Source: Methanobacteriota archaeon
GTDB taxonomy: Archaea; Thermoplasmatota; Thermoplasmata; SG8-5; JAGLSY01
Assembly (NCBI GenBank): GCA_020697715.1
Contig: JAEHCO010000001.1
Span: 2,222-66,221 of the forward strand
Direction: 5' to 3'
Length of the DNA stretch: 64,000 bases
A program made the translations under genes and the position numbers. The notes under the pieces are model-generated. The model searched no databases and had not been told where the DNA came from. It saw nothing but the letters and a program-made list of their open reading frames with translations. Shown piece by piece: positions 40,494 to 59,152 of the stretch; position 1 is the first letter of the stretch, and the number at the start of each line of letters is the position of its first letter.

Positions 40494-41552
40494 CTAGAAA
40501 GCGTTGATAATCGTGTCCAGATCTTCCTTCGTCAATCCCGGATGCACCGGCAGGCTCAGCACCTCTTCCGCGGCCTTATCCGAGTTATCCAAGCCTTTGC
40601 TTCCATAATCAGATAGCAGGTCGAACTTGTGCAGGGATTTGGGGTAATACACACCTGATCCGACACCATTGTCCCTGAGCTTCTGGATGACATTGTCCCT
40701 ATCCTGCACTCTTATCGTGTACTGGTGGAAAACATGGCGGTAGCCATCTGGTACGTATGGAGTGACGATGCCTTTTGCTTTCAATCCTTCTGTTAAGTAA
40801 GCGGCATTTGCGATCCTGGCCTTGGTCATTTCTTCAAGTTTGGCAAGCTGGACAACGCCGATGGAGGCCGCGATGTCGGTCATTCTGAAATTGTATCCCA
40901 GGAATTCGTACACATAGCGGTCGGCCATGCCGTGGTTCCTGAACTTCTTGGCCAGGTCGTTTATCTCATCATCATTTGTCGTGATGATGCCGCCCTCGCC
41001 GGTTGTCATGTTCTTTGTTGGATAGAAGCTGAAACTGGCTGCATCTCCCATGGAGCCAGTGGTCTTCCCGTTCATGGCAGCTCCGTGAGCCTGGCATGAG
41101 TCTTCGAGAATCTTTAGACCATGCTGAACACCGAGCTTGTTTATCTTCTCCATGTCAGCTGACAGTCCGAAAATATGGACTGGCATGATGGCCTTTGTTC
41201 TTGGAGTTATCTTCTCAGCTATTGAATCAGGAGAGATATTGAAGGTCTTTGGATCTATATCCGCGAAGACCGGGGTCGCTCCCGTGAATAAGATGGATGT
41301 CGCACTGGCCACGAAGCTGAAAGGAGTTGTTATGACCTCATCGCCCTTGCCGATGCCCATTGATAATAGGGCGAGGTGAAGGGCCTGGGTTCCGTTTCCC
41401 ACCGCGATGCCGTGTTTCGCTCCGCAGTACTCGGCGAATTTTTCTTCCAATTCGGCGACTTTCTTTCCCTGAGCCAGCATACCGGATTGCATAACGGCTT
41501 TCACTGCCTCGAACTCGTCATCCCCTATCTGGGGGCTTGCTACGTTTATCAT
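40494..41552 (-). CDS. DegT/DnrJ/EryC1/StrS-family PLP-dependent sugar aminotransferase (WbpE-like)
   Basis: 352 aa; PLP-lysine region and family motifs (MPVHIFG, SFSFYPTKNMTTGEGG). Confidence 0.85.
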   Translation of the reverse strand: MINVASPQIGDDEFEAVKAVMQSGMLAQGKKVAELEEKFAEYCGAKHGIAVGNGTQALHLALLSMGIGKGDEVITTPFSFVASATSILFTGATPVFADIDPKTFNISPDSIAEKITPRTKAIMPVHIFGLSADMEKINKLGVQHGLKILEDSCQAHGAAMNGKTTGSMGDAASFSFYPTKNMTTGEGGIITTNDDEINDLAKKFRNHGMADRYVYEFLGYNFRMTDIAASIGVVQLAKLEEMTKARIANAAYLTEGLKAKGIVTPYVPDGYRHVFHQYTIRVQDRDNVIQKLRDNGVGSGVYYPKSLHKFDLLSDYGSKGLDNSDKAAEEVLSLPVHPGLTKEDLDTIINAF

Positions 41553-41553
41553 A

Positions 41554-42183
41554 TTACAATCTCCTGTGATCTTTTGGTGTTTCGCCTATTTGTCTAGCTG
41601 GCACACCTGCCATGATGGCGAAGTCCGGTACATCCTTCGTAACTACCGCGCCAGCTCCAATAACCGTATCCCTGCCGATCTTCACTCCTGGCAGGATCGT
41701 CGTATTGGCTCCTATCCTGGCATGGTCACCGACTCTCGCTCCTATCAAATTGATATCACCGCGACCCATGTACTTGTCATTCGTGAAGCACGCGCGTGGT
41801 CCGATAAAGACATCGTCGCCGATTATCGTGTTCGTTGGAATGTAAACACCTGTCTGGATGGATGTGCGATTCCCGATCTTGCACTGGTCCTCGATGACCG
41901 TGCTGGTACCGATTATAACCTGGTCGCCGATCTCTGTTTCTTCCCTTATGAGAGCGTGATGGCCAGTCTGGCATCTATCACCCATTTTCACATCCGTGTA
42001 GATGATCGTGTAATCCCTTATAACGCAGTTCTCTCCAAGTATCGAGCCGCGGGTCTCATTCTCGCGACCAGATATCATCAGTTCTTTGTCATGCTTTCCT
42101 GGATGGCCGATAACAGCAGTTTCTGCCACATATGTTCCATCACCTAGCTTGGTATCTCCAAGTATCCTTCCCATATTCATCAC
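41554..42183 (-). CDS. Hexapeptide-repeat sugar N-acetyltransferase (WbpD/PglD-like)
   Basis: 209 aa; left-handed beta-helix hexapeptide repeats across most of the protein; 1-nt gap and 4-nt overlap with neighbours. Confidence 0.8.
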   Translation of the reverse strand: MMNMGRILGDTKLGDGTYVAETAVIGHPGKHDKELMISGRENETRGSILGENCVIRDYTIIYTDVKMGDRCQTGHHALIREETEIGDQVIIGTSTVIEDQCKIGNRTSIQTGVYIPTNTIIGDDVFIGPRACFTNDKYMGRGDINLIGARVGDHARIGANTTILPGVKIGRDTVIGAGAVVTKDVPDFAIMAGVPARQIGETPKDHRRL

Positions 42184-43187
42184 TCCAGATCAATTTTCCT
42201 TCCAGTTTTAACGGATTCTATCGCGGCCTGGCAGACCTTGATCGTCTCCAGACCATCCTCACCGGATACGAGCGGTTCTCTCTTGTCCCGAATTGCTTCG
42301 AGGAAATCCACCAGTTCGTTCATGAGAGGTTCTTTCTTTCTTAGTGAAATGTCACGTATATCGAATTCAAGTGGGATATGCGACATATCTGAATTATCAA
42401 AAGCACGTACCTGGGAGGATGATATCCTCGCACTCTGAGTGATATAATCAAGCTCAACAAAGTTCTTCATGCACGTGAGCGAGAGCTTGCGCACTTTCAT
42501 GGGTGTCAACCAATTTATCTCGATGAAGCCAGTTGTACCGTTTTCGAAGTCAAGAAGTATGTTCGCATGATCCTCGAAAACATCATTGGCCTGCTTTCCA
42601 CCAAGTGCATAGACGCTCTTGATCGGGCTGCCGATGAGATAGCGGAGAGCATCGATATCATGAACACCCAGATCCATTACCACTCCCACATCCCGTATCC
42701 TTGCCGGGAAGGAACTAACGCGCCTGGCGGTGATAGTTACCACATCACCGAACTTCTTGGAAGCTATGGCTTCCTTGCCGAACTTCACCACTGGATTATG
42801 CCTCTCGATAAGACCGACCGCGAGGGTGAGGTTCGCATCCCTTGCCGCATTGATCAATGTCTGGGATTCCTCAATAGTGGAGCAGATGGGCTTCTCGATA
42901 AGCACATGCTTTCCAGCCGCGATCGCATCCATCGCGATCTGAAAATGCGTAACTGTCGGAGTCGCTATTGACACCGCTTCGATGTCAGAGGCAAGAAGTT
43001 CATGATAATCCTCATATGCCTTTGCTCCGAACTTTTCCGCAAGCTCACCGGCTGTCTTGAAATCCACATCGGATATTGCATCCAGAACACCAATATCTGA
43101 ATATACCCGGGCGTGGTTTCGACCCATTGAGCCAACACCTATAACTCCTACACTTATCTTACCTTCAAAGCTAGTCATCGCGAGCAC
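42180..43187 (-). CDS. Gfo/Idh/MocA-family NAD-dependent sugar oxidoreductase (WbpB-like)
   Basis: 335 aa; N-terminal Rossmann motif VGVIGVGSMGRNHARVY and EKP motif (LIEKPI). Confidence 0.85.
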   Translation of the reverse strand: MLAMTSFEGKISVGVIGVGSMGRNHARVYSDIGVLDAISDVDFKTAGELAEKFGAKAYEDYHELLASDIEAVSIATPTVTHFQIAMDAIAAGKHVLIEKPICSTIEESQTLINAARDANLTLAVGLIERHNPVVKFGKEAIASKKFGDVVTITARRVSSFPARIRDVGVVMDLGVHDIDALRYLIGSPIKSVYALGGKQANDVFEDHANILLDFENGTTGFIEINWLTPMKVRKLSLTCMKNFVELDYITQSARISSSQVRAFDNSDMSHIPLEFDIRDISLRKKEPLMNELVDFLEAIRDKREPLVSGEDGLETIKVCQAAIESVKTGRKIDLE

Positions 43188-43337
43188 CTAAGATACAATA
43201 GATATAAAGTTTTACCTTTTATGACATAAGATGATAAATGAATAAAAATTATAAGTGGGCTGAGGCGGATCGAGAAAAATACGAAGCTTTTTTCGACATA
43301 GCCTCGGTTCACGATTAAAATCAAAAAGAAAACAAAG

Positions 43338-43479
43338 TGGGCCGAGGCGGATTTGAACCGCCGATCTTCGCCTTGCTGATTGCATGTCAGAAATTTCTGG
43401 CATGCAACTGTAAGGGCGACGTCAGATGGAGTGAAATGTAAGCGAACTTGCCATTTCAAAACCCCTAGACCACCGGCCC
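43338..43479 (-). tRNA. tRNA-Val (anticodon UAC) with two introns: about 34 nt in the D-loop and 35 nt at canonical 37/38
   Basis: Gene-strand 5' GGGCCGGTGGTCTAG…TGACGTCGCC-CTTACA-[GTTGCATGCCAGAAATTTCTGACATGCAATCAGCA]-AGGCGAAGATCGGCGGTTCAAATCCGCCTCGGCCC-A; exons give a canonical 73-nt tRNA; exact D-loop intron boundaries not resolved. Confidence 0.6.
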
Positions 43480-43591
43480 GCGGTATTTCGGGGATTGGCG
43501 AAGTGGTATTTATTTCTGTGGTTTGATATGGTTTTTGTCAAAACCTTTAAAATGATGGTGGATATCACCTTAACATCCACAGCAAGAGTAT

Positions 43592-43724
43592 GCGAGGGTA
43601 GCTAAGCATGGTCAAATTGACCTGCAACCACTGACGAATCAACAGCGTTTGCAATCAAGGCTAACGGCGATAGACTCAAGATCTATTCCTTAGTGGTTCG
43701 CCGGTTCAAATCCGGTCCCTCGCA
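43592..43724 (+). tRNA. tRNA-Leu (anticodon CAA, type II) with about 48-nt non-canonical intron in the D-loop (about 43617-43664)
   Basis: GCGAGGG/CCCTCGC acceptor stem, D-loop AGCATGGTCAAA, intact anticodon arm ATAGA-CTCAAGA-TCTAT, 13-nt variable arm, T-arm GCCGG-TTCAAAT-CCGGT, discriminator A; 6-bp helix GGTCAA/TTGACC spans the exon-intron junction. Confidence 0.6.
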
Positions 43725-43876
43725 CCTTTTTATTTTTTGAGATAGCAGACTGTATTTTACACATACCCAGCAAGAATATGAAGCGAACGAGCAGGGTCAC
43801 CCGAGTTTTCTTTTGCAATGGAATACTTGTTCTTTTGGAGGGTGACCCAGCACAGTGAGCGTAAAAGAAAAGGCTT

Positions 43877-43900
43877 CCGTTTGAATCCGGTCCCTCGCAC
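43877..43900 (+). repeat. Direct repeat of the tRNA-Leu 3' end (20 of 20 nt identical: AATCCGGTCCCTCGCACCTT), att-like remnant
   Basis: Second copy 173 bp downstream of the tRNA; T-arm upstream of the repeat is degenerate, so not a functional tRNA. Confidence 0.5.
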
Positions 43901-43901
43901 C

Positions 43902-44612
43902 TTATTTTACCATATTTTGTATCATCTCAACAAGCCTATCGATGATGACCTCATTGGCTTTTTCTCCGAATTCCTTCGATGCAAGCTGGGGATCTCCCAT
44001 GACACCAGTTGGGAAGTATTTTTCAGGGTGCTTGAGTATCATAAAAGGTGGGAAATTTGGATGATTGGATTCGGCAGTTCCCTTTACCAGATCAGGGCGT
44101 ATGGCCATCACCCGCGAGGTCTCGATCATGCCCGCATGCCCGTCATTGACAGGTATCTCGATCTCGTTCATCGTGTACGCGATATCATAATCCGAAAGTA
44201 CCATCAGATTAATGTCCTCATCATGGGCTTCCAGAACAGTCTCACCTGCAAGCTTCAGCGCGGTCATGTGAGTTCGTCCAGCATGACCGGATAGGACCAC
44301 GATATTCCTGAATCCCATCCTGATCAACTCGGACAGGATGTCCTCCATCATCATCCGCAGAGTTTCGAATCTGAGTGTTATGGTTCCCGGGAAGTTCTTG
44401 GTGCTCGAACACTGTCCGTATTTCAAAATAGGTAACAGATAGGCTCCCAATCGCTCTGAAACTACTTCCGCAACATATTGGGGTTGCAAACAATCGGTGG
44501 ACAGGGGAAGATGTGGCCCATGCTCCTCTATCGCACCCAGTGGTAATATCGCGATAGAGCTCTCATTCACTTTTTCCCTTATCTCTTCAGTGGTCATTTC
44601 CTCCAATAACAT
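43902..44612 (-). CDS. Creatininase-family amidohydrolase (possibly ArfB-like formamide hydrolase)
   Basis: 236 aa; creatininase signature ILPLGAIEEHGPHLPLSTD and metal-binding His/Glu/Asp pattern. Confidence 0.8.
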   Translation of the reverse strand: MLLEEMTTEEIREKVNESSIAILPLGAIEEHGPHLPLSTDCLQPQYVAEVVSERLGAYLLPILKYGQCSSTKNFPGTITLRFETLRMMMEDILSELIRMGFRNIVVLSGHAGRTHMTALKLAGETVLEAHDEDINLMVLSDYDIAYTMNEIEIPVNDGHAGMIETSRVMAIRPDLVKGTAESNHPNFPPFMILKHPEKYFPTGVMGDPQLASKEFGEKANEVIIDRLVEMIQNMVK

Positions 44613-44631
44613 GTTATCCCTCTTTACTAGT

Positions 44632-44701
44632 TCATGATTTTGTCCATGATTATTTCATGATTTTCTCATATTCATTCATGATCGCTCATAGTCACTCATG
44701 A
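44632..44701. promoter_or_regulatory. Helically phased array of seven (T)CATGA(T) palindromic hexamers, spacing 9-13 bp
   Basis: TCATGA-like sites at 44632, 44645, 44655, 44666, 44676, 44687, 44696; starts 20 bp upstream of the creatininase-family start codon, in the divergent intergenic region. Confidence 0.4.
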
Positions 44702-44915
44702 TATACAAATGAAATCTTATAATTAACCTAAGGTAATCTTTATTATCAGTTAATCCATTATTGATTGTATAAATGGCACATAGGAGGCCTATTAGATAAC
44801 TCCAGCAAATCCGTCAGCAGAAGCCTCAATAGTCTTTGAGCGACTTTTCTCAGATTATCTTCAGACCCTTTCAAAGAGCGGAAGCATTAATCTTCACATC
44901 AAGAAGCTTCAGAAG

Positions 44916-46472
44916 ATGGCTGAGACACTCACCATACTGAAAGGCGTCAGTATAAATGATGACGGCCAGGTATCCATGGATCTCAGAGAATGGAGCATTG
45001 AGGATATCGTATCCACCATGAGCAAGGTGTTCGATTCGCTGATCGCGGTCTCCGCTATCACCAAAGGTGATGAAAAGGCCTACCTGGAAGCGGATGATTC
45101 CGTAATGAGGATAAAAAATCAATTCAAGTCCCAATTTGTCTCACTTGGCATAGAGAAGCATATCCTGAAGGGAGGTTTGAGATCCCATCTGGACGTGGGA
45201 ATTGAAGGAGCGGATAAGGTATTGGGGGGAGGGATCCCCAAAGGCAATACCATATTATTGCTCGGACCACCTGGAAGTGAGAAATACTTATTCGCATACC
45301 AATATATAATCCAGGGACTGAGGGATGGAAGTGCATGTCTTATCAGCACATCGGTCACTGACCATAAAGGAATGAAGAACAATCTTTCAAAGTTGAAGAT
45401 CAAGCCATCCACATTCGAGGGCCAGGGATTATTGAAGACCATCGACTGGTATTCTTATAAGAAAGAAAATCTGGTGGGTGTGGAGGATGATGGAAATGTT
45501 TTCAGAGCGTCCAAGGACATAACCAATCTTGATATCGCGATAGGATCGGCTGTCAACAAGCTCTCCTTTGCCCCGACAAAAAGAGCGATGCTGGATATAA
45601 TATCACCAGCACTCAATATCTATGATCATTCCATGGTCATAGAGTTCGTTCAAAAGGAGAAGAACCTATTGAAGACTAAGGGCTTCACGACACTTCTGGT
45701 GGTTGAGAGCGGAGCTCATGATGAAAGAACATTGTCCACTCTTAAACATCTTTCAGACGGTGTGTTGATTATCGAGAAAGGCAGCAAAGGCCAGCTTACA
45801 TTCAAAGTAGAAGCTTTATCTGGCATGAAGTTCGACCAGAAGGCCCATCGCATCAAGGTGACCAAGAAAGGTCTGGAGATCATTTCCAATGTGAAGGATG
45901 AAAGCTCCATATTACAGGATCTGCAAGAAATACCAGCGATTGACAAAATAACAGCAGAAAAACTTATCGAGGCTGGCTTCACCAGCATGGAAAAATTGGA
46001 AAAGGCGAAGAAGTCGGAACTGGAAAGTGTTACAGGCATTGATGCGAATGTGTCCAATAAGATCTACGAATACATACATTCTGTAGAATATTCAAAGAAG
46101 ATAATAGAGAGAAAGAGCCAGAACTGGGTAAGGAAAGGATTGCAATTCATTGGTAAAAAAGAGATAGACAAGGGAATGCAAAGTTTCCAGAGGGCGATAG
46201 AGATCCACCCCAAGAACTCAAGTGCGTGGCTGGAGATGGCCAGGCTTCTTTACAATGAAGGTAGCAAAGATGATTCCAGAAAATGCTTTGACAAAGCTTT
46301 GGAGATCGATCCCACATTGGCAAAAGAATGGTTCGATAAGACCGAGGTACAGGAAGCTGGATGGGGCTGTCCCGTATGTGGGTTCTACATAAAGGAAGAA
46401 AATATCGAATGCCCTGAATGTGGTGTCATATTCAGTGTTGAAGAAAGAGAGAGCCAGAGGGATCAAATATGA
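44916..46472 (+). CDS. KaiC/RecA-like domain protein fused to helix-hairpin-helix, TPR and C-terminal zinc ribbon
   Basis: 518 aa; KaiC-like core (GIEGADKVLGGGIPKGNTILLLGPPGSEKY) with atypical P-loop lacking GK[ST]; HhH (IPAIDKITAEKLIEAGF…VTGIDANVSNKI); TPR-like pair; CPVCG…CPECG; start uncertain. Confidence 0.65.
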   Translation: MAETLTILKGVSINDDGQVSMDLREWSIEDIVSTMSKVFDSLIAVSAITKGDEKAYLEADDSVMRIKNQFKSQFVSLGIEKHILKGGLRSHLDVGIEGADKVLGGGIPKGNTILLLGPPGSEKYLFAYQYIIQGLRDGSACLISTSVTDHKGMKNNLSKLKIKPSTFEGQGLLKTIDWYSYKKENLVGVEDDGNVFRASKDITNLDIAIGSAVNKLSFAPTKRAMLDIISPALNIYDHSMVIEFVQKEKNLLKTKGFTTLLVVESGAHDERTLSTLKHLSDGVLIIEKGSKGQLTFKVEALSGMKFDQKAHRIKVTKKGLEIISNVKDESSILQDLQEIPAIDKITAEKLIEAGFTSMEKLEKAKKSELESVTGIDANVSNKIYEYIHSVEYSKKIIERKSQNWVRKGLQFIGKKEIDKGMQSFQRAIEIHPKNSSAWLEMARLLYNEGSKDDSRKCFDKALEIDPTLAKEWFDKTEVQEAGWGCPVCGFYIKEENIECPECGVIFSVEERESQRDQI

Positions 46473-47413
46473 GCTTGGGCAAGAAGGCCTTCGCCTCGGC
46501 TCCCTGTAGCTTGACATTATTGGGATATGACCTACACGATCATATTGGAACCTCTGTGGGGATCGCACTGGATAAGCGAATAAAATGTGAGACCATGATA
46601 TCGGAAAGCTTCATGGTCAATAACGATGTCTATGATGGGAACAAATATCCTTATGTTAGGGCGGCTCTGCTTCATGGATGGAGCGATATTGACACCCCTG
46701 TCTCATTCGAGATAGATGATATTACGATCCCAGATAATGTCAGTGGCTATGGACCTGGACATATCGCCTCCACCCTGGGTTCCCTGTCAATGATGAACGA
46801 CAATCTGATGTTCGAGGATATCTTATTGAAAGGCCATGAGATATTGAAGGAGAATGATAGCAAGATGGGGGTATTGGGACTATCCACCGCTATCAATGGA
46901 TATGGCACTGTATTATCCAATGAGATCGGCAAAGGCCACTTATGGAGTGTGGGAAAGGGGAAGAAAGCGAGGCACATCCATCATCTCGACATGCCGGATA
47001 TGACATTCGTTCTCGCATTTCAGAAGGGTGGATCTGGGAAAGAGGATTTCTCTGGAAAGTTCAATAATTTCGCCAGGCGTCAGAGTGGCTTCTTCAAAGA
47101 CATGCTGAAGGATTCGGCAAAGCTGGCTAAAAAAGGTCTTCAGGCTTTGGAGCGTGGGGATATGGAAGGGCTTGGCCAGGCCATGAACGAGACCGACAAG
47201 TTGACGAAGACGATGGGCATGTACACGCCAGAACTGAAAGTCGTGGCCGACCTGTGCAGGAGCCAGGCATTTGGAGCGAGGCTTTGCATATCGGAGAAAC
47301 ATGCGTATGTGGTGACTTTGACCAATGAGCCGGAAGAATTGGCCAGCAATATCCGGGAAAAGGGACATATCGCGATGGTCGCTGGCATATCCCGCGATGG
47401 ATTGCAGATATAA
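46469..47413 (+). CDS. GHMP-kinase-like protein (divergent; function unassigned)
   Basis: 314 aa; weak GHMP-type motifs (APCSLTLLGYDLHDH…, Gly/Ser-rich loop PGHIASTLGS, C-terminal GARLCISEKHAYVVTL); 4-nt overlap with upstream gene. Confidence 0.4.
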   Translation: MSLGKKAFASAPCSLTLLGYDLHDHIGTSVGIALDKRIKCETMISESFMVNNDVYDGNKYPYVRAALLHGWSDIDTPVSFEIDDITIPDNVSGYGPGHIASTLGSLSMMNDNLMFEDILLKGHEILKENDSKMGVLGLSTAINGYGTVLSNEIGKGHLWSVGKGKKARHIHHLDMPDMTFVLAFQKGGSGKEDFSGKFNNFARRQSGFFKDMLKDSAKLAKKGLQALERGDMEGLGQAMNETDKLTKTMGMYTPELKVVADLCRSQAFGARLCISEKHAYVVTLTNEPEELASNIREKGHIAMVAGISRDGLQI

Positions 47414-47502
47414 ACAAACACTCTAAAGGGTTGATAAATTTAGTCGTGTTAGTTTTTCTAATCGCTAGTAATACATTGAATTTAGGCGATTAGAAAGAAC
47501 CT

Positions 47503-47600
47503 AGTCGGTTGCCGTAAGCCCATCTATGAAAATTTAGCTTAACTCGAAGCCATATAAGCTTCGAGAAATCGGGTTTTATGGCCTTGGATGAGAACATTCA
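47503..47600. other. Conserved intergenic element, copy 1 (17-mer AGTCGGTTGCCGTAAGC plus 8-bp-stem hairpin), candidate sRNA or terminator
   Basis: 17-mer at 47503-47519 identical to 52015-52031; hairpin CTCGAAGC-CATATAA-GCTTCGAG at 47543-47565; shared downstream TTATGGCC; between convergent genes. Confidence 0.3.
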
Positions 47601-47624
47601 GGCACTTTTTGGGCATGATAGTTC

Positions 47625-49367
47625 TCACATTTCTTCAGGGGCCACAATACCCAGCGTGTTCAGCGCGTTCTGAAGTACCATCTTGGAGCATTTTACCAGA
47701 TTCAAACGCGCCTCCATGATATCCGCTTCCGCGCTGAGAACCGGGCAATCTCTGTAAAATTGATTGAAGAGGGATGCCAGCTCGTAGGTGTATGACGCCA
47801 CAAGGTGGGGTGTCCTGTCATCCGCGCATTTGATTATGAGTGAAGGGAACCTGGCCAGTGCTTTTATCAAGCTTATCTCGGACTCATGGATCAGAAGTCC
47901 GGGGTCGAAGTCATTCGGAGCATCCGTATTCCTCAGGATGCTGCTCGCTCTGGCATGGGAGTATTGAATGAAAGGCGCGCTATTTCCTTCAAAGTTCATG
48001 GCCTCCTCCCATTTGAAGGTCATTTGCTTTTCCGCCTGCACCCGGATGATATTGTAGCGTATGGCACCGACACCCACGGTCTCCGCTATGCCCAGCTTGA
48101 TCTCTTCAGGAAGCTCCGGTCTTTTCTTTTCAACTTCCGCCAGTGCCCTTGACACGGCCTCTTCGATGAGGTCATCCATGTAGACAACCTGGCCCTTGCG
48201 TGTGGACATCTTGCCCTCTGGCAAGGACACGAAGGCGTAGAATATGACCTCGACCTTTTTCTCATAATCCAGTACCTCATTGAGGGCTATGCTGACTGCC
48301 TCTGCTTTGAGTTTGTGATCCTCACCCAGCACATTGATCATATGGTCAAAATTATTATGTTTATCAATGTGGTAAGCTATGTCACGTGTTGTGTAAAGGG
48401 ACGTACCATCACTTCTTGTAAGGAACAGCTTGTTCTCCCTACCATGTATACCGAATTTCTCAAGATCCAGATACAGCGCGCCATCATCCTCGCCTGTCGA
48501 TTCACTGGCTCTCAGTTTTTCAACTACTTCCGCCACACTACCGTCCCTGACATATTTTGATTCCAGGTCGAATTTATCATAATGAATATCCAATCTCATC
48601 ATGGGAACCAACATCCCTTCCAAAATGTCCTCACAGTTCTTCTTCACCTTCTTGGATATGTCAGCCTCTCCATCTTCCTCATAAAGTGAAATGAGCTTAT
48701 TGATCTCATTATTGATATTGGGATCCTCAGCCATCAGCCTGTTAGCTTCCTGGTAGAATTTCACGAACTTGTGGTCCGCCCTGTCGCTCTCCACATCCAA
48801 TCCAGTGATATTCTCATGGCCCCAGGTGAGAATAACTAATTGTTTTCCCATGTCATCAACGTAAAAATGAACATCCAGATCATATCCTCTTTTTCTCAGG
48901 ATACGCGCCATCGTGTCCCCGATTATTGGATTGCGAGCCCGGCCTACATGAAGCGGGCCAGTTGGGTTCGCACTGGTATGTTCGAGGATAATCTTGGGAG
49001 CCTGATCCTCGAATTCGAAGGAACCATATCTATCCTTCATGCGAAATACCATTTCCATGGTTTTCCCGGCCAGTACTTTCCTATCAATGTAAAAATTAAC
49101 ATAAGGGCCCACATTCTCTATCTTTTCGAATAGAGGATTCGCGCCAATGCCAGCCACCAATTTCTCGGCCAGTTCCTGTGGTTTCATACCCAGTGGCCCA
49201 GCTAATGAGAAACAAACAAAGGCATAATCACTGTGCTGGTGTAATTTCAATGGTGGTAGGTAGAGCTCATTCCCACCCAGGGAATCCAAGGCCTTTCTCA
49301 TCTGGGCATTTGCTTCTTTATCGAATAAGGCCAGTGGGTTGAACTTTTCTAAATTATCGACATCCAT
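47625..49367 (-). CDS. argS: Arginine--tRNA ligase
   Basis: 580 aa; class I HIGH-type motif (ANPTGPLHVGRARN), ArgRS anticodon-binding C-terminal domain. Confidence 0.9.
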   Translation of the reverse strand: MDVDNLEKFNPLALFDKEANAQMRKALDSLGGNELYLPPLKLHQHSDYAFVCFSLAGPLGMKPQELAEKLVAGIGANPLFEKIENVGPYVNFYIDRKVLAGKTMEMVFRMKDRYGSFEFEDQAPKIILEHTSANPTGPLHVGRARNPIIGDTMARILRKRGYDLDVHFYVDDMGKQLVILTWGHENITGLDVESDRADHKFVKFYQEANRLMAEDPNINNEINKLISLYEEDGEADISKKVKKNCEDILEGMLVPMMRLDIHYDKFDLESKYVRDGSVAEVVEKLRASESTGEDDGALYLDLEKFGIHGRENKLFLTRSDGTSLYTTRDIAYHIDKHNNFDHMINVLGEDHKLKAEAVSIALNEVLDYEKKVEVIFYAFVSLPEGKMSTRKGQVVYMDDLIEEAVSRALAEVEKKRPELPEEIKLGIAETVGVGAIRYNIIRVQAEKQMTFKWEEAMNFEGNSAPFIQYSHARASSILRNTDAPNDFDPGLLIHESEISLIKALARFPSLIIKCADDRTPHLVASYTYELASLFNQFYRDCPVLSAEADIMEARLNLVKCSKMVLQNALNTLGIVAPEEM

Positions 49368-50726: not shown

Positions 50727-51410
50727 ATGGATAATGTAGTTATCTCAATAGGCGGCTCGATACTGGTACCGGACGATCATGATACCTCTTACATCAAGGA
50801 ACTGGCAGACATGCTTCTGAGGATCAAGAAGGATGCGAAGCTGTTCATCGTCGTGGGCGGTGGTCGAATAGCCAGATATTATATTCGACTTGGTCGTGAC
50901 CTTGGAGCTGATGAGTCCTATCTGGATGATGTTGGAATTGCTGTTACCAGGCTCAATTCCCGAATGCTGATTACCGCACTTGGGGACAGTGCTTATCACG
51001 TGCCAGCCGAGAGCTTTGACGAGGCGATCATGGCCTCTAAAAATCATGATATCGTGATAATGGGTGGCACACATCCAGGACACACGACAGACGCAGTTTC
51101 CGCCATGCTGGGTGAGCGTGTTGGAGCTGTTCGATTGATCAATGCCACATCCGTTGACGGTGTTTATACATCCGATCCGAAGAAGGACCCGGATGCCAAG
51201 CGCCTGCCCACGGTCAGTTTCCCCGAGCTGGTGCGCATCTGCCTGCAAGTCGAAGGCGGAGCTGGACCCAATGTGGTCTTCGATCCATTGGGTGCGAAGA
51301 TAATTGCAAGATCTGGTATCGAGACACGGATCGTGCACGGTCGTGAGCTAGTGGAACTGGAGAAGGCCATACTTGGCAAGGATTTCCACGGTACCATTGT
51401 ATCAGAATGA
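50727..51410 (+). CDS. pyrH: UMP kinase (archaeal type)
   Basis: Start placed at ATG 50727 (MDNVVISIGGSIL…); amino-acid-kinase fold motifs IVVGGGRIAR, VIMGGTHPGHTTD. Confidence 0.85.
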   Translation: MDNVVISIGGSILVPDDHDTSYIKELADMLLRIKKDAKLFIVVGGGRIARYYIRLGRDLGADESYLDDVGIAVTRLNSRMLITALGDSAYHVPAESFDEAIMASKNHDIVIMGGTHPGHTTDAVSAMLGERVGAVRLINATSVDGVYTSDPKKDPDAKRLPTVSFPELVRICLQVEGGAGPNVVFDPLGAKIIARSGIETRIVHGRELVELEKAILGKDFHGTIVSE

Positions 51411-52724: not shown

Positions 52725-53231
52725 TTACATATTCAGTAAGCTGCCGCCGCTCATCTGGATCTCTTGTCCGTCTAGGTCGACTATTGTAATTTCGTATTCA
52801 CCAGCCTGTGCGTTTGCCCAGGTCAATGTTACGTAGTCTCCACTGTTTATAAGAGAGTTGGCTCCGATATCAGTTGCTACTGCAGTGATATCCTGTCCAG
52901 CGCCAGATTTTGCAACAGAAATTGCTGTTGGCGGATTGGCATCAAACGATAATACATAACTAGTGGAATTAACACCAGCTATTGTTATTGTTATGTCTGT
53001 CCATTCGATATCTGTGCTGAACGATCCGAACTTCATTGTTGCGGTTGTTGAAGAGTCCTTATCGAGCTCTGACCAGTTTCCTGTTGCAGCTACACTGCCT
53101 CCACCGCCAAAGTCCATGACCATGACGTAAAGCACAGCAGCCAAAACCACGGTGATAGCGACCATCAAAATGGTAGCAATAACCGGAGACACTGCGTCGT
53201 CCTTCTTTCTTATATTCCATGTGTTTTTCAT
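52725..53231 (-). CDS. Archaeal type IV pilin-like protein (class III signal peptide)
   Basis: 168 aa; N-terminus MKNTWNIRKKDDAVSPVIATILMVAITVVLAAVLYV matches the prepilin-peptidase-processed motif; beta-rich Thr/Ser-rich C-terminal domain. Confidence 0.65.
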   Translation of the reverse strand: MKNTWNIRKKDDAVSPVIATILMVAITVVLAAVLYVMVMDFGGGGSVAATGNWSELDKDSSTTATMKFGSFSTDIEWTDITITIAGVNSTSYVLSFDANPPTAISVAKSGAGQDITAVATDIGANSLINSGDYVTLTWANAQAGEYEITIVDLDGQEIQMSGGSLLNM

Positions 53232-53367
53232 ATATTTTGTCCTCCTGTAGACTATAAGCCTACGTAATTATAGATTACAAGGACAATATATTTATAGTTT
53301 TCTCAAAATAATACGGCAATCAACGTATATACATACGGCAAATACCGATGCATTGTGCCTCAAAGGA

Positions 53368-54120
53368 TCATATGTTCTTTGCGGATATACCCTTATCATC
53401 TATGTTGCATGATAAGATCTTAGTTTTCTCTGGGTGATTCCTCACCTTCCTTATCAGCAGATTCCTTGTGAAAGTGGAGCCCTCTCTGAGCCTCTCCAGT
53501 TCTATTGTGATATCCACTATATCCTGGACACCACTTTCCACGCGATTGTCAAAAACCCCTTTCAGCATCGTGACGAGGGCTATGCCATTATTTAGTTGAG
53601 TATGAGCCTTGATGGTCCTTATGGCGGAAAGCACATCAGCCTCATCATAATACTCTAGGAAGAAATCCAGAGAATCCAATACGATCCTAAATGGTGGTTT
53701 GAGCTTCGATATACCATATGTGAGCGTGGTCAGGAAATTGACATCCATGCTTTGTTCAGCCTGGGCGGCATTGAATTGCTTGATATCTCGCATTTTCAAT
53801 CCTTCCTGGCGATACTTGCTAACTTCCAGGTTCTTGGCCAGAACCTTCTCATAATACATCTTGCCGATATTCACGACCCTGATATCCTGCTTCCACCCGA
53901 ATTCACCCATGGCGGTCTTAACAGCCTCATCACTTTCAGTGGTGGAGAAATAGGTAACGTTCTCATTTCCTATTCCAGCTGCTGCAAACTGCTTGGCAAA
54001 TAGCTCGACACCGGTTCCGGGTATACCGGTGATCAATATCGTACATCCTTTCGGAACACCATCCATCAGGGATTTATCCAGCTCCTTCACACCTATGCTG
54101 GTAGTTTCGATCAAACTCAT
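53368..54120 (-). CDS. KaiC/RecA-like ATPase domain protein (third of triad)
   Basis: 250 aa; P-loop-like GIPGTGVELF (non-canonical) and KaiC-type fold; 4-nt overlap with upstream gene. Confidence 0.7.
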   Translation of the reverse strand: MSLIETTSIGVKELDKSLMDGVPKGCTILITGIPGTGVELFAKQFAAAGIGNENVTYFSTTESDEAVKTAMGEFGWKQDIRVVNIGKMYYEKVLAKNLEVSKYRQEGLKMRDIKQFNAAQAEQSMDVNFLTTLTYGISKLKPPFRIVLDSLDFFLEYYDEADVLSAIRTIKAHTQLNNGIALVTMLKGVFDNRVESGVQDIVDITIELERLREGSTFTRNLLIRKVRNHPEKTKILSCNIDDKGISAKNI

Positions 54121-54689
54121 TCACCCCCTATGGTTATCGTGGTATCACATACCAACTTCATCATATTGGATATCTCTTCAGTGCTGAACTCTTCCATTGT
54201 GAAGACCATGGAATAGGCATCCTTGGCTCTCAGATTGTTTATGAATATATGCAAGAATTCGGACAGGATCTTCATATTATTGTGAATACCCAGGGCATTT
54301 ATGGCATCTAAAACAATGACATTGTTCTTGCCATCTGATTTCCTTATGAGGTATTCCACCTTCAGCATGATGTTCTCCAGCATGGTGGGGCTTTCCACAT
54401 AGAGCACGTTCTTGTATTTCTTGGCCCCTCCGACCATGATATGGGAAACACAGTCCACGAAGTAAATATTGGTAAGATCGATCTCCAGGATCTTCAAGAC
54501 ATCGATTATTGAATGTGATGGAATAGCCACCGTGATGTAGATGACATTCAAATTCTTCTTATTGGCGAAGATATCCACTATTCCCCTTATGGCATCGAAA
54601 TAACTATCACTGACTATCTTCAGGTTTATAGCGGATGAAGGTGGGAGCTCATGAAGCTCATCTGCCAGATCGCCAGGTGATTTGATCAT
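54117..54689 (-). CDS. KaiC/RecA-like fold protein lacking recognisable Walker A (second of triad)
   Basis: 190 aa; matches C-terminal part of KaiC-like fold (NVIVLDAINALG) without P-loop; 4-nt overlaps on both sides. Confidence 0.5.
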   Translation of the reverse strand: MIKSPGDLADELHELPPSSAINLKIVSDSYFDAIRGIVDIFANKKNLNVIYITVAIPSHSIIDVLKILEIDLTNIYFVDCVSHIMVGGAKKYKNVLYVESPTMLENIMLKVEYLIRKSDGKNNVIVLDAINALGIHNNMKILSEFLHIFINNLRAKDAYSMVFTMEEFSTEEISNMMKLVCDTTITIGGE

Positions 54690-55438
54690 AGACCACCACC
54701 GCCCTTGAGCAATGGAACAAGTAATACGCCCGCGGGTGTCAGATCCAGAACATATTTCGCTCTGGAATGTACTGTTCCTCTCATTTTCACCACTTGCAAT
54801 GTCCTCAGAAGGTCTCCCCTCCGCTCATAATTCCCCATAAGGACGATACCATCCGCGATGGCTTCCTCCACCCCGTAGAGCGAGTACCTGTCGGCAGATG
54901 GTGATATTTCGGATATCAGAAGACTGGTGCAACCCCTGGTAGAAAGAGCTTTTCCTATCTTCAATATGAATTCCCTTATCTTCTCCTCTGTTTTCAATCT
55001 GTAGCAAACGGAGGTTATGGAATCTATGACCAATCTTTTGACAGAAAGCTCATCCACGAGGTTACCCAGTGCACGAACCAGAGTGTCGACATCCTCCAGA
55101 CTGAACTCCACATTTGTCAAACCCAATCTCTCATAGATGACTGGCATATCGACGAATGCCAGTTTTCCTGTTTTTATCAGGGATTCCTCAAAGAAATCAT
55201 ATGGGATGACATTCGTGGTAAGTTTCTCAGATGATTCTGTAACTGAAACAAAAAGTGAATTCTCATCGGCCAGAGCCCCATGCACTAAAAATTCAAGGGA
55301 CAGTGTGGTCTTTCCAGTACCGCAACTGCCTGTGAACAAAATGGTATTTCCTCTGGGTATTCCTCCATTTAGAATATTATCCAAACCATCTATTCCTGTA
55401 ACGCAACGTTCTCTCTCAATGATATTTTCTGAGGCCAT
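54686..55438 (-). CDS. KaiC/RecA-like ATPase (first of triad; canonical Walker A)
   Basis: 250 aa; GIDGLDNILNGGIPRGNTILFTGSCGTGKTTL Walker A, Walker B (RLVIDSI), KaiC-type C-terminus. Confidence 0.75.
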   Translation of the reverse strand: MASENIIERERCVTGIDGLDNILNGGIPRGNTILFTGSCGTGKTTLSLEFLVHGALADENSLFVSVTESSEKLTTNVIPYDFFEESLIKTGKLAFVDMPVIYERLGLTNVEFSLEDVDTLVRALGNLVDELSVKRLVIDSITSVCYRLKTEEKIREFILKIGKALSTRGCTSLLISEISPSADRYSLYGVEEAIADGIVLMGNYERRGDLLRTLQVVKMRGTVHSRAKYVLDLTPAGVLLVPLLKGGGGL

Positions 55439-55591: not shown

Positions 55592-58500
55592 TTGAGCGAT
55601 TCCACACTTTACCTATGCCCATTTTGTGGCGCCTTCATAAACGAGGAGGCCGAGGTTTGTCCCAATTGCAGCAAACCATTGGAAGAGGAGGTGGAAGGTG
55701 GATTCGAGAAAGAGCTGGATGATCTTATAGATGAAGATCTCAATGCCATGTCAGGAAGTGAATCCTGTCCCAGATGTGGAAAGCAGCTGGAAGAAGGATC
55801 ATTAGAATGCCTGGATTGCAATATGAAGATCGAGGATGGACTGGAACCCGCATCTGAAGGAGAAGAGGAAGGAGTGGCTCTATTCCTTTGTTCAGGATGT
55901 GGGGCTTTTATCAATTCGAATTCCAATGAATGCCCCAAATGTGGTATTTCACTTGATGATGAGGCTGAAGAAGAACATGATTTTGTAGAATATGATAATG
56001 AATTGCTGGATCTCCTTGTTGAGAATGAGCCAGATGAAGAAGATGAGCTTATCCTGGAGTTGGATAGCATAGATGATCCAGAAGATCTGATATCGGTCAT
56101 TGACAAGATGCCGGATATTGAAGATGAAGAGCTATTCGATGATGAACCAGATATCGTACTTGATCTTGATCTGGCAGATGACGATCCGGAAGGCGATCTT
56201 CTTCACATGAACATTGATGATGAAATAGAGAAGACCAGGATAGTGGAATCCATTAGCGAAAGGGTAGCCGGAGAAGTGGCTATCGAAAGTGATAGTGGAG
56301 ATGAGATCATGCTCTGTGGAGAGTGTGGAGCATTTGTCTCCCAATCTTCAAAGGAATGTAATGTTTGTGGAAATGACATAAGACCTGGCAGCCATCTGGC
56401 TATTGAAAAAGATGAGATCCCCTCAGAGAATGATGGCGAAAATACAGAGACCGCCCTGAGGTCCATACTTGGGATATTGGATGATGTCATACTTGATCCG
56501 GATCCAATGGCAGATCATGAGGATGATATTGGCATATGCCAGAAATGTGGAGCTTTCATACCTCATGGCGAGAGTGCGTGTCCCGTATGTCATGCGGACA
56601 AAAAGAGTCTTCCAGATATCATATACACGGAACTGCCTATAGATGATCATGATTCTATGTCCATTTGCGGGGATTGTGGAGCTTTTGTCAAATCCGATTC
56701 AGATACATGTAATGTTTGTGGAGCCAAGGTCGATGCCGATATGCTAAGATCCATAGAGCCAGATGATGTCTTGGAGATGGGGATGGATGCGGATGACCCA
56801 ATGGATATTCTGAAAAAAGCACTGGGTGTGCTGGAATTACGAGATACGACACCAGAGGAAAGGATCGGTGGAGAACTGGATCTATGTCCGGATTGTGGTG
56901 CTTTCGTCTCAGCTAATGCCAAATCATGCTCCATTTGTGGCAGCGATCTGATCCAGGGCACGGATATAAGCCTGGATGATGGCATAGTCATGGATCTGGA
57001 TGATGGATCGGTCATTCTTTCAGACAGTGTTTGTCCCAATTGTGGCTCCAAGTTCGGGGTCGGGGCAGGAGATTGTGAGGTTTGTGGCTTCACATTCCTC
57101 GGTGATGAAAGTGATCATGACGAGAAGGAAATGTCCTATGAAGACAGGGTGGACATATCGGATATCATAGAATTCGAGGTTCCAGAATTGACAAAGGAAA
57201 GCGCTATCGATCACCTCAATGAAATGGAAGATGATATGGATGATCTAATTCTGGATGAAGTAAAGCCTGAATCATCTGCCGAGGTTAAGAGTGGGGAACT
57301 ATCCAATGAAGAAAAGCTGGCCAGGATAGAAAAGGCCTATGAAGAAGGGCAACTTAGCAAGGCCAATTACATAATCAACAAGGCCAAGTTCTACGGACTT
57401 GTTCAGGAAATGAATGAGATAGAAGATGACCTGGATGAGCTTTTGATAGATATTGATGAGACGATGGCCGAGACCGTGGAAGTGCCGACCGAAGAGGATG
57501 AAATAGAAAGTCTGGAGCTTGGAGATCTTCATCTGAATATCGATCCAGATGCTCAGGACGACGAGGATACCCAGCCAGATGTGGAAATGGAATATGATGA
57601 TCTGTCCCTTTCAGAAGATGACATCAAAGAAGGCATCCATGACGGAAAATATGATGATATCATCGAATTCGATGATCAGGATCTGGATCTAACCCAGGAT
57701 GATACTTATCAGGAAGATCTGGATGAGCATATTGAAACTTATGAGGAAGAGGATGAGACCTCGAAAGAGGATGAAACCTCGGATGAGGATGTCATATACG
57801 AAGAGGTCGAGGTCTATGTGGACGAAGATGGCCAGGAAATAGAATATGAAGAGGTCGAGGTAAATGAGGATGACATCGAAGAGTATGAGGAGGATGTCGA
57901 TGATCCTGAAGGAACCGATTTAGATGATCATGACCCCGAGGAAACATATTTCGAAGAGGAAGACGAGATCCATGTACCCTTCAGATCACATGCCATGGCG
58001 GAGACCACTGGAGGACCGCAATATCTCAATCATTCCGGATGGGAATATGGTGTCATCGCATCACTTCTTACATCCCTCTTCTATGTCGCGCTTTCCTCAT
58101 ACATACCCATCAATCCCATATCATTGGCCATAATATTTGGCGTGATACTTATCTTCGCCTTCATAATGATGGTCACATCAAGATCCATATTCATGAAAGG
58201 CGATCTGTACCGTGGTTCCGTGTTCATGATAGGCGGAGTGATAATTTCTTTCATCCTGCTCCATTGGTTCGCGGATATCATGATCGATGATCCGATGGTG
58301 GACAAAATGCTACTGTCGATAGGAATAATGATGATCGGTATAGGAATAATCTGGATAAGGGGCAAGATCCGATATATCCATCTCTGGTTATCCGGCACCA
58401 TATTCCTATTTCTGTTCTCCATAGGAGAGCTTTATTATTTCGAGCAATGGGCCTATTCCCCCATCCAGCCACCAGGAGCGATAGTGGCTGGGATCGGGAT

Positions 58501-59152
58501 ATCTCTGATCGTGGCCAGTTCCATACTGCTGGCCTATGAGAGAAGTCTACACACTTCGATAGAGACGGAGATCGTTCGAGGAGATATGGACTATCTCAAT
58601 AAGAATTACAAGAAGGCATTGCATTCCTATGATAGGGCGCTTGAGAAAAGCACCCTGAAGACCGAATCCGCATTGAAGGCAGATGATACCAGGGAATACG
58701 ATGTCCCATGGTACAGTAAAGGTGCGACCCTGATATTGATGGGTAATTTGAAAGAAGGAATTGAATGTCTGGATATGGCTCTATCCATAAATCCCAATAA
58801 CGAGGTCGCATGGGTGAGCAAGGGAAATGCCTATTCAAAGCTCGGGGACATGAGCAGTGCTTTGGAATCATATAACAATGCATTGATCGCGAACCCCAGA
58901 TACATAATAGCCTGGAACAATAGAGGTAATGCATTTGCCAGGAAGGAGAATTATATCGAAGCCCTGAAGAACTATAACAGGGCGATCAAGCTGGATCCAG
59001 ATTATAAGGACGCGTGGATCAATAAGGGCTATGTCCTGATGAAGATGGGAAAGCAGGATGAGGCGCTCAAATGTGTGTCGATGATAGGGGAGAAAAAGAT
59101 GGGACAGCATGGAGCAGCCAGTACCAATGGCAGTACTAAGGCCTCTGCCTGA
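55592..59152 (+). CDS. Giant membrane protein: eight N-terminal CxxC-N(9-11)-CxxC zinc ribbons, acidic linker, about six TM helices, C-terminal TPR repeats
   Basis: 1186 aa, TTG start; ribbons such as CPFCGAFINEEAEVCPNCSKP, CSGCGAFINSNSNECPKCGIS, CGDCGAFVKSDSDTCNVCGAK; hydrophobic block (…VIASLLTSLFYVALSSY…); four or more 34-aa TPR units. Confidence 0.7.
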   Translation: MSDSTLYLCPFCGAFINEEAEVCPNCSKPLEEEVEGGFEKELDDLIDEDLNAMSGSESCPRCGKQLEEGSLECLDCNMKIEDGLEPASEGEEEGVALFLCSGCGAFINSNSNECPKCGISLDDEAEEEHDFVEYDNELLDLLVENEPDEEDELILELDSIDDPEDLISVIDKMPDIEDEELFDDEPDIVLDLDLADDDPEGDLLHMNIDDEIEKTRIVESISERVAGEVAIESDSGDEIMLCGECGAFVSQSSKECNVCGNDIRPGSHLAIEKDEIPSENDGENTETALRSILGILDDVILDPDPMADHEDDIGICQKCGAFIPHGESACPVCHADKKSLPDIIYTELPIDDHDSMSICGDCGAFVKSDSDTCNVCGAKVDADMLRSIEPDDVLEMGMDADDPMDILKKALGVLELRDTTPEERIGGELDLCPDCGAFVSANAKSCSICGSDLIQGTDISLDDGIVMDLDDGSVILSDSVCPNCGSKFGVGAGDCEVCGFTFLGDESDHDEKEMSYEDRVDISDIIEFEVPELTKESAIDHLNEMEDDMDDLILDEVKPESSAEVKSGELSNEEKLARIEKAYEEGQLSKANYIINKAKFYGLVQEMNEIEDDLDELLIDIDETMAETVEVPTEEDEIESLELGDLHLNIDPDAQDDEDTQPDVEMEYDDLSLSEDDIKEGIHDGKYDDIIEFDDQDLDLTQDDTYQEDLDEHIETYEEEDETSKEDETSDEDVIYEEVEVYVDEDGQEIEYEEVEVNEDDIEEYEEDVDDPEGTDLDDHDPEETYFEEEDEIHVPFRSHAMAETTGGPQYLNHSGWEYGVIASLLTSLFYVALSSYIPINPISLAIIFGVILIFAFIMMVTSRSIFMKGDLYRGSVFMIGGVIISFILLHWFADIMIDDPMVDKMLLSIGIMMIGIGIIWIRGKIRYIHLWLSGTIFLFLFSIGELYYFEQWAYSPIQPPGAIVAGIGISLIVASSILLAYERSLHTSIETEIVRGDMDYLNKNYKKALHSYDRALEKSTLKTESALKADDTREYDVPWYSKGATLILMGNLKEGIECLDMALSINPNNEVAWVSKGNAYSKLGDMSSALESYNNALIANPRYIIAWNNRGNAFARKENYIEALKNYNRAIKLDPDYKDAWINKGYVLMKMGKQDEALKCVSMIGEKKMGQHGAASTNGSTKASA

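Follow-up and report, generated by a model that had tools for sequence, protein, structure and literature searches.

A conserved gene pair of uncultured Thermoplasmata joining a KaiC-fold protein with an atypical P-loop to a mevalonate-kinase-derived pseudokinase

The window, a stretch of 64,000 nucleotides from contig JAEHCO010000001.1 of an archaeon of the class Thermoplasmata, contains two overlapping open reading frames (ORFs), hereafter ORF1 and ORF2 (Table 1). ORF1 encodes a KaiC/RecA-fold protein with an atypical Walker A motif, followed by (HhH)2, TPR and zinc-ribbon regions, and ORF2 encodes a relative of mevalonate kinase (MVK) that lacks the motifs of the active enzyme. We propose that the two genes form a two-protein module, coupled in translation and specific to lineages of uncultured Thermoplasmata, and, tentatively, that their products form a non-catalytic sensor/regulator complex, in which an MVK-derived sensor is attached to a pseudo-KaiC hub. 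The module is real, conserved and built from two known kinds of protein, and it is apparently undescribed: a KaiC-like/MVK-like pair was not found in the literature searched, a search that did not extend to the work of Makarova et al. (2017, mBio 8:e01959-17) surveying KaiC-like proteins in archaea. Orthologous loci of other genomes are referred to by L numbers and database proteins by P numbers; they fall into clade A, which includes the window, an intermediate clade, and clades B1 and B2.

A sequence-only reading of this DNA had taken the N-terminal part of ORF1 for a KaiC-like core lacking GK[ST] and the remainder for HhH, TPR and CxxC…CxxC ribbon regions. This architecture was borne out and an unrelated N-terminal fold was not, as both Pfam and Foldseek placed the core in the KaiC fold. 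PF06745 matched residues 94–325 of the annotated frame (E-value 4e-26; 92.2 bits against a gathering cut-off of 26.6). An AlphaFold2 model of ORF1, built on 28 family members, reached a mean predicted local distance difference test (pLDDT) score of 85, and Foldseek matched the core to PH0284 (2dr3) with a template modelling (TM) score of 0.83 and to the CI domain of KaiC with ~0.8, as well as to SSO2452 and PH0186. The motif GPPGSEKY aligned with GTPGTGKT of KaiC and GPESSGKT of RecA and departs from the GxxxxGK[ST] pattern, with a Tyr in the place of the Mg-binding Thr. In the phmmer alignment to KaiC 8zn5, 'vtfees' faced 'istsvt', so that the catalytic FEES of KaiC corresponds to STSV in ORF1, while the acidic residue of Walker B is present in ORF1 and is D or E family-wide. 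Judged by these motifs, ORF1 is not an active P-loop ATPase; most likely, it would bind a nucleotide or another phospho-ligand without hydrolysing it.

These departures are shared by the whole family. The database search returned ~31 ORF1 clusters of 490–560 residues, all from metagenome-assembled genomes (MAGs) of Thermoplasmata or 'Methanomassiliicoccales' and none from a cultured organism. Each of the 28 aligned members has a P-loop of the form GPPG-x-[AE]-K-[YHF], in which the Lys is almost invariant, and the distant paralogue P0032, which lacks the N-terminal domain, has GPSGNEKY. The alignment thus presents the odd P-loop as a conserved variant rather than as decay, and the family exhibits a conserved non-canonical P-loop of the form G-x-x-G-x-E/A-K-Y. 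The catalytic Glu pair is missing family-wide, with the consensus LSSMSVKE in its place, and a DWY motif, SKD[IM]xNLDIA and the Walker-B-type Asp are invariant or nearly so. Against its orthologue in L008, ORF1 yielded a ratio of nonsynonymous to synonymous substitution rates (dN/dS) of 0.07, compared with 0.10 for the neighbouring ArgRS gene, and is under strong purifying selection.

The core is flanked by an N-terminal domain that retrieved no significant match in Pfam and PDB sequence searches. Its modelled portion (the model starts from ATG 44916) consists of two long helices and short strands and is helical in appearance. C-terminal to the core, Pfam assigned HHH_5 to residues 334–384 (E-value 2.4e-6) and HHH_5/HHH_2 together to residues 334–390; this region folds into five short helices in the model and matched residues 5–60 of RadA PRK04301 in NCBIfam (E-value 5.8e-9). 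It is followed by TPR matches at residues 400–467 and by the ribbon cysteines, which are covered by weak Pfam zinc-ribbon matches at residues 485–504. The ribbon is confined to clade A (the window, L008, L047, L045 and L009) and, independently, to P0032-type paralogues. The orphan N-terminal domain and the clade-specific ribbon, together with the MVK paralogy of ORF2 and the ATA start codon discussed below, go beyond the sequence-only reading.

The RadA-like region raises the alternative that ORF1 would be a DNA repair or recombination accessory, acting on DNA as a mediator akin to RadA paralogues, with the MVK-like protein as a recruited subunit. The RecA superfamily core agrees with this, non-hydrolysing RadA paralogues are known from archaea, and at least eight clade-B2 loci have a gene for Lhr helicase in divergent orientation to the module. 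The core is nevertheless nearer to KaiC and PH0284 than to RadA, the hairpins of the HhH region are degenerate, linkage to Lhr occurs in one subclade only, and an MVK paralogue in repair would be left unexplained; we therefore consider a repair role improbable.

ORF2 had been described as having only degenerate GHMP-kinase motifs and as overlapping ORF1 by 4 nucleotides (nt). Both observations hold, and ORF2 did not turn out to be a standard metabolic kinase. The overlap is an ATGA that sets the start codon of ORF2 on the stop codon of ORF1 and is consistent with translational coupling. In Pfam, ORF2 produced a marginal GHMP_kinases_C match (19.6 bits against a cut-off of 21). Its match to the MVK model PRK03926 was full-length and weak (E-value 1.9e-8; 33.8 bits against 403), and it scored 22.6 bits with TIGR00549 against a cut-off of 163, below which the clade-B partners (119–141 bits) fall as well. 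A profile built from the eight clade-A sequences only, searched against 1.84 billion representatives, retrieved full-length canonical MVKs with E-values of 1e-50 to 1e-30 and the canonical MVK P0069 at 9e-51, and the profile of the partner family matched the structure of the MVK from Methanosarcina mazei (4hac) with an E-value of 3e-50. Because the clade-A profile finds canonical MVKs and the wider partner-family profile finds 4hac, the MVK ancestry of ORF2 is secure at the level of profile homology, which extends across both GHMP domains and places ORF2 in the GHMP superfamily as a paralogue of MVK. The partner family further shares an insertion of ~18 residues with an invariant Trp ('LW') with one canonical archaeal MVK subtype, to which P0069 belongs, and it groups as a single clade adjoining this LW-type subtype in a distance tree.

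Canonical MVKs carry APGK..GEH in motif I, GLGSSAA in motif II, SP.DTS at the site of the catalytic Asp and GAGGGG in motif III. The clade-B partners read APGR..G[ED]H, GLG-x-x-x-A, PLD.S and G.GGGG at these positions, those of the intermediate clade APVS/APAS, GWG, PLD and GGGG, and those of clade A APCSLTLLGYD, NVSGYGPGHIAS, GVLGLS and RLCISEKHAY. The motif-I Lys and the motif-II Ser-Ser are kept by no partner in any clade. What is kept descends from R/D/GGGG in clade B through D/GGGG in the intermediate clade to nothing in clade A, a natural series from enzyme to pseudoenzyme in which, as far as motifs can tell, loss is stepwise and pairing outlasts catalysis. As every motif that defines an active MVK is lost, ORF2 cannot work as one. 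The dN/dS of 0.15 found despite this loss identifies it as a retained pseudokinase under purifying selection. An AlphaFold2 model of ORF2 from the eight-sequence clade-A alignment (pLDDT 49.6) was too poor for use.

The same ladder bears on a second alternative, namely that the module is a metabolic enzyme complex. Here, the partner would be an active GHMP kinase, at least in clade B, for a substrate other than mevalonate, with ORF1 as its scaffold or allosteric subunit and the window version as a dead remnant with a structural role only. The clade-B partners retain the catalytic Asp, the GGGG motif III and APGR-ILFGEH, pass both Pfam GHMP domains, and carry an Arg in motif I at what we take to be the site of the catalytic Arg of galactokinase (GalK). 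The lack of the Lys and the Ser-Ser from every partner speaks against activity, as do clade A and the intermediate clade, which have shed more motifs and yet remain selected and paired, and no pathway is known that needs a second MVK-like kinase beside a KaiC-fold protein. On balance, an enzyme complex appears unlikely.

Table 1. Features of the module and of related genes in the window.
Feature	Position	Strand	Remarks
Conserved non-coding element	44730..44763	+	34 nt, AAGGTAATCTTTATTATCAGTTAATCCATTATTG; TATA-like TTTATTAT plus 17 conserved bases downstream
Proposed ORF1 initiation site	44781..44798	+	GGAGG Shine-Dalgarno-like run at 44781-44785, 10-nt spacer, ATA at 44796-44798
ORF1 as annotated	44916..46472	+	518 residues, start ATG 44916
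ORF1 full length as proposed	44796..46472	+	558 residues, start ATA 44796
ORF1, orphan N-terminal domain	44796..45185	+	~130 residues; conserved family-wide; motifs include EASIVFERLFSDYL and FDSLI
ORF1, single KaiC/RecA-fold domain	45195..45890	+	Pfam PF06745, Foldseek
ORF1, atypical Walker A	45264..45287	+	GPPGSEKY; second Gly replaced by Glu, Thr/Ser by Tyr, Lys kept
ORF1, end of strand 2	45342..45365	+	ISTSVTDH at the position of the catalytic Glu-Glu of KaiC; glutamates absent
ORF1, Walker-B-like motif	45588..45605	+	MLDIIS, Asp kept; aligned with KaiC 'vvidsit'
ORF1, (HhH)2 domain	45915..46085	+	RadA N-terminal-like; hairpins partly degenerate (IPAID, VTGID)
ORF1, two TPR units	46113..46331	+	TPR_1, TPR_2, TPR_8, TPR_17, TPR_19; matches consensus TPR proteins
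ORF1, zinc ribbon	46368..46421	+	CPVC-x10-CPEC, read directly from the sequence
ATGA overlap	46469..46472	+	Start codon of ORF2 on stop codon of ORF1; seen in the sequence
ORF2	46469..47413	+	314 residues; MVK-derived pseudokinase
ORF2, motif I	46499-46531	+	APCSLTLLGYD; Lys absent
ORF2, motif II	46736-46771	+	NVSGYGPGHIAS; GLGSSAA lost
ORF2, catalytic-Asp position	46868-46885	+	GVLGLS; Asp lost
ORF2, subfamily insertion	46937-46951	+	HLWSV, kept
ORF2, motif III	47279-47308	+	RLCISEKHAY; GGGG loop lost
Archaeal type IV pilin gene	52725-53231	-	Next after the KaiC trio
KaiC-like ORF	53368-54120	-	Degenerate GIPGTGVE, Lys lost
KaiC-like ORF (marginal)	54117-54689	-	DUF7090-like, no P-loop
KaiC-like ORF	54686-55438	-	Canonical GSCGTGKT
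Double-zinc-ribbon/TPR protein	55592-59152		1186 residues; divergent from the KaiC trio

Pairing was assessed over distinct loci that have a true ORF1 orthologue, recognised by its N-terminal domain, and extend at least 1 kb downstream of it. The tie to the downstream gene noted in the sequence-only reading recurs across genomes, with an MVK-like gene immediately 3′ of ORF1, on the same strand and with a 4–8-nt overlap or a gap of <45 nt, in 19 of the 20 loci. All 20 come from uncultured Thermoplasmata MAGs, and their flanks differ by clade. A third gene, for a TPR protein of 163–190 residues, occurs in all clades except that of the window; the C-terminal TPR extension of ORF1 was considered as a fused copy of it and this was rejected, the similarity being generic to TPRs. 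Clade A has a creatininase-family gene upstream and ArgRS and aRF1 genes downstream, and clade B2 has Lhr helicase, a radical-SAM enzyme and a 250-residue KaiC upstream. In clade B1 and the intermediate clade, the operon for the lower mevalonate pathway of archaea lies next to the module in divergent orientation. In L023, MVK, UbiD, AcnX, AcnX-swivel and Cdc48 genes lead away from ORF1 on the opposite strand; in L078, ORF1 is divergent from AAA16-TPR, tubulin-like, MVK, UbiD, LpdD, AcnX, AcnX-swivel and Cdc48 genes, in this order; and in L058 a fragment of an MVK gene lies 0.8 kb upstream of the module. The two genes preceding MVK in L078 (4473–9939) encode a 972-residue STAND-type AAA_16/TPR protein and a weakly tubulin-like protein of 548 residues, tightly packed on the same strand. 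In the clade-A locus L047, the gene adjoining ORF1 in divergent orientation (3728–6073) likewise encodes an AAA_16/TPR protein.

The MVK of the operon passes TIGR00549 (229.5 bits in L001 against the cut-off of 163) and has no LW insertion, and in L001 and L078 it resides on the same contig as the partner. Genomes of this type contain the partner alongside a canonical MVK, since the operon enzyme meets the cut-off and lacks the insertion. The canonical LW-type P0069 stands alone, without a KaiC-like neighbour. A second lineage of degenerate MVK-like proteins (P0090 type, ~360 residues), encoded on an unrelated contig directly upstream of MVK, UbiD, AcnX and AcnX-swivel genes (L054 6001–7092), lacks the Lys, Asp and GGGG, contains a low-complexity insertion and is independent of the ORF2 family; a KaiC-like identity was ruled out for the 350-residue product of the gene upstream of it. 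In the window itself, the gene at 50730–51410 was considered as an isopentenyl-phosphate kinase, which would have tied the neighbourhood to the pathway, and was rejected as such, as it encodes an archaeal UMP kinase.

The start of ORF1 was revised. The 40 codons 5′ of ATG 44916 are in frame and encode ITPANPSAEASIVFERLFSDYLQTLSKSGSINLHIKKLQK, a sequence with homology to the N-terminal end of every deeper family member (…GSVEASMVFEKLFSDYL…). No ATG, GTG or TTG occurs between the preceding in-frame TAG and ATG 44916, and ATA 44796 is the first codon past this TAG. The same ATA, with a purine-rich run at similar short spacing, is found in seven clade-A loci (the window, L007/8, L009, L018, L045, L047 and L056), and the deeper clades have ATG or TTG at the equivalent position. 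Over the 40 codons, the window and L008 differ by 13 synonymous and five non-synonymous changes. As these codons are in frame, share homology with the N-terminus of the family and change in the manner of coding DNA, the most likely start of ORF1 is ATA 44796, which would give a product of 558 residues. If so, the database entries of its closest relatives (P0001–P0004), for which an internal ATG was called instead, would lack 40 N-terminal residues, and the family would feature a conserved ATA initiation codon missed by gene callers. Read-through of the upstream TAG as pyrrolysine was weighed instead of an ATA start and rejected, as conservation at the protein level is absent 5′ of the ATA and the Shine-Dalgarno-like run is conserved as DNA.

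Upstream of this site, the 34-nt element is near-identical across clade-A loci despite far more diverged coding DNA. Across 77 loci, its pattern was found upstream of ORF1 orthologues only, and in the window it occurs once against zero occurrences expected by chance. It is probably the promoter of ORF1 and perhaps includes an operator. Clade-B promoters show a looser C-A-T-A-W-T-G ~12–15 nt past the TATA box.

We know of no described regulator of the mevalonate pathway in archaea, and we understand the control of isoprenoid membrane-lipid synthesis in archaea to be largely unknown. A pair of pseudoenzymes, one of them derived from MVK, beside the mevalonate operon in the deeper clades is a concrete candidate for such a regulator. 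In the sensor/regulator reading, which fits best of those considered here and which we put forward as a possibility, ORF1 would serve as scaffold, switch or hub and use its tail of (HhH)2, TPR and zinc-ribbon regions to contact DNA, proteins or both, and ORF2 would be a ligand-binding sensor subunit with a pocket for mevalonate or a related metabolite; the MVK-like partners of the deeper clades possibly still bind ATP. The ligand state of ORF2 would be passed to the pseudo-KaiC hub and from there to an output, for example transcription of mevalonate or isoprenoid-lipid genes, in the manner of yeast Gal3p, a galactokinase paralogue turned sensor of the GAL regulon. A physical complex, its ligand and its output are what we infer here. 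A regulator of low abundance would fit the weak ATA start, the conservation of the promoter element, the divergent placement relative to the mevalonate operon and the XOL-1/Gal3p precedent. If the reading is true, the stepwise loss of kinase motifs across clades would be the record of an enzyme becoming a sensor. The more specific claim, that the module would be the first regulator dedicated to the mevalonate/isoprenoid-lipid pathway of archaea, with an MVK-derived sensor, a pseudo-ATPase hub and a read-out on DNA or partner proteins through the HhH/TPR/zinc-ribbon tail, is rather unlikely as it stands.

Several points weigh against the sensor/regulator reading. The complex, the ligand and the DNA binding are predictions, and DNA binding by ORF1 is uncertain because the canonical G-h-G is missing from its HhH hairpins. 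Linkage to the mevalonate operon exists in two of the four subclades and is absent from clade A, including the window, and from the Lhr-linked clade B2; where present, it may be inherited synteny and not independent evidence. A separate canonical MVK was established in related genomes, not for the genome of the window. The clade-B partners, with Asp, GGGG loop and Arg kept, may still be active kinases. Finally, the sole ORF1 orthologue without an MVK-like partner (L017 1854–3067) has two archaeal pilin-like genes instead.

This last locus also pertains to a third alternative, in which ORF1 would be the pseudo-ATPase subunit of an archaeal KaiC-type signalling branch, forming mixed rings with a canonical 250-residue KaiC and acting on the cell surface or pili, not on isoprenoids. 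Along with the pilin-like genes of L017, it draws on the KaiC trio and pilin gene of the window (52725–55438), on clade-B2 loci that combine a 250-residue KaiC closely similar to one of this trio with pilin genes nearby, and on distant ORF1-like paralogues, which are almost always preceded by a KaiC gene of 229–267 residues. The canonical KaiC of the window is, however, 8 kb away, past housekeeping genes, true orthologues never lie directly beside a 250-residue KaiC, and the obligatory MVK-like partner would go unexplained, all of which make such a branch a doubtful account of the pair.

That the two genes are decaying and without function would agree with the loss of catalytic motifs in both proteins. 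This is hardly credible, because it is contradicted by the selection acting on both genes; their frames are intact in ~20 genomes, and the remodelled P-loop, the promoter, the Shine-Dalgarno-like run and the start codon are all conserved.

As the sequence-only reading had stated, ORF1 is the fourth KaiC-like gene in the window, the other three lying at 53368–55438 on the reverse strand. A zinc-ribbon and TPR theme that it had seen as shared with giant proteins of the window applies to the 1186-residue protein encoded at 55592–59152, whereas most of the other giants (GLUG/He_PIG, SMC, WD40) are unrelated. The 250-residue KaiC of clade B2 (L060 3673–4449 and L061 3520–4299) is 85% identical to one of the two 250-residue KaiC proteins of the window (54686–55438 or 53368–54120). 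ORF1 reaches only 38–39% identity between these genomes, which marks the small KaiC as unusually conserved. The distant ORF1-like paralogues, which never have an MVK-like partner, reach 2348 residues and carry TPRs and zinc ribbons, with a KaiC gene of 229–267 residues usually just before them. Giant paralogues of 1700–2350 residues with the KaiC-like domain of ORF1 are encoded in L027 (1805–8851), L040 (5983–11109), L064 (1816–7614) and L065 (2957–9073), and those of L027 and L040 are each immediately preceded by a KaiC gene of 224–250 residues.

The reverse strand upstream of the module (40494–44612) encodes a sugar-modification set, comprising a DegT aminotransferase, a hexapeptide acetyltransferase and a GFO/IDH/MocA oxidoreductase, and after it the creatininase-family protein. 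The gene for the latter precedes ORF1 in every clade-A locus, including L045, in which other flanks are altered. Across positions 43100–47700, Rfam returned only a sub-threshold match to the C/D-box small RNA sR53 (24.7 bits against 49), at 44307–44358 on the reverse strand within the creatininase-like gene and probably due to chance. A scan for bacterial promoters and terminators yielded nothing informative. PADLOC reported no defence-system match, with weak TPR-driven matches only for ORF1 and none for ORF2.

Among known systems, the single-domain archaeal KaiC-like proteins PH0284 (2dr3), PH0186 (2zts) and SSO2452 (2w0m) are closest to ORF1 in fold (TM 0.8), core length, Walker A Lys and Walker B Asp. 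They contain GxxGxGK[ST] where ORF1 has GPPGSEKY and no catalytic Glu pair, and they lack what ORF1 adds, namely the orphan N-terminal domain, the C-terminal (HhH)2, TPRs and zinc ribbon, and the obligatory MVK-like partner. A KaiC-like protein binding ATP and barely hydrolysing it has a precedent in ArlH (FlaH). ORF1 scored far below the cut-offs of all NCBIfam equivalog models for KaiC, ArlH and RadA, with 20.1 bits against 215 for ArlH, and there are no arl genes beside it. The core is homologous to both CI and CII of circadian KaiC, which comprises two tandem domains; ORF1 has one, without the canonical P-loop and catalytic glutamates, KaiA and KaiB genes are absent, and the scores were 19.8 bits against 546 with TIGR02655 and 51.9 against 408 with NF006799. 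RadA/Rad51 and the RadA paralogues likewise combine a RecA superfamily core with an (HhH)2 of RadA type. In RadA, the latter is N-terminal to the core, whereas ORF1 has the permuted order and a core nearer to KaiC, and the RadA models TIGR02236 and NF003301 matched the HhH region only (35.6 bits against 259).

With regard to ORF2, homology to MVK (M. mazei 4hac/6mde; TIGR00549) is full-length and includes the LW insertion of one archaeal subtype, while the Lys, GLGSSAA, catalytic Asp and GGGG loop of the enzyme are all absent. GHMP-fold regulators without kinase activity are on record, namely XOL-1 of Caenorhabditis elegans and Gal3p of yeast (PMC11349215). Like them, ORF2 is a GHMP-kinase paralogue apparently devoid of kinase activity, and a regulatory role for it would follow the same pattern. 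Gal3p belongs to the GalK branch and acts in yeast with Gal80, whereas ORF2 belongs to the MVK branch and has a KaiC-fold protein as its archaeal partner, so that the resemblance of the module to such enzyme-derived sensors is one of analogy and not of membership. Gal3p regulates the pathway of its own enzymatic ancestor.

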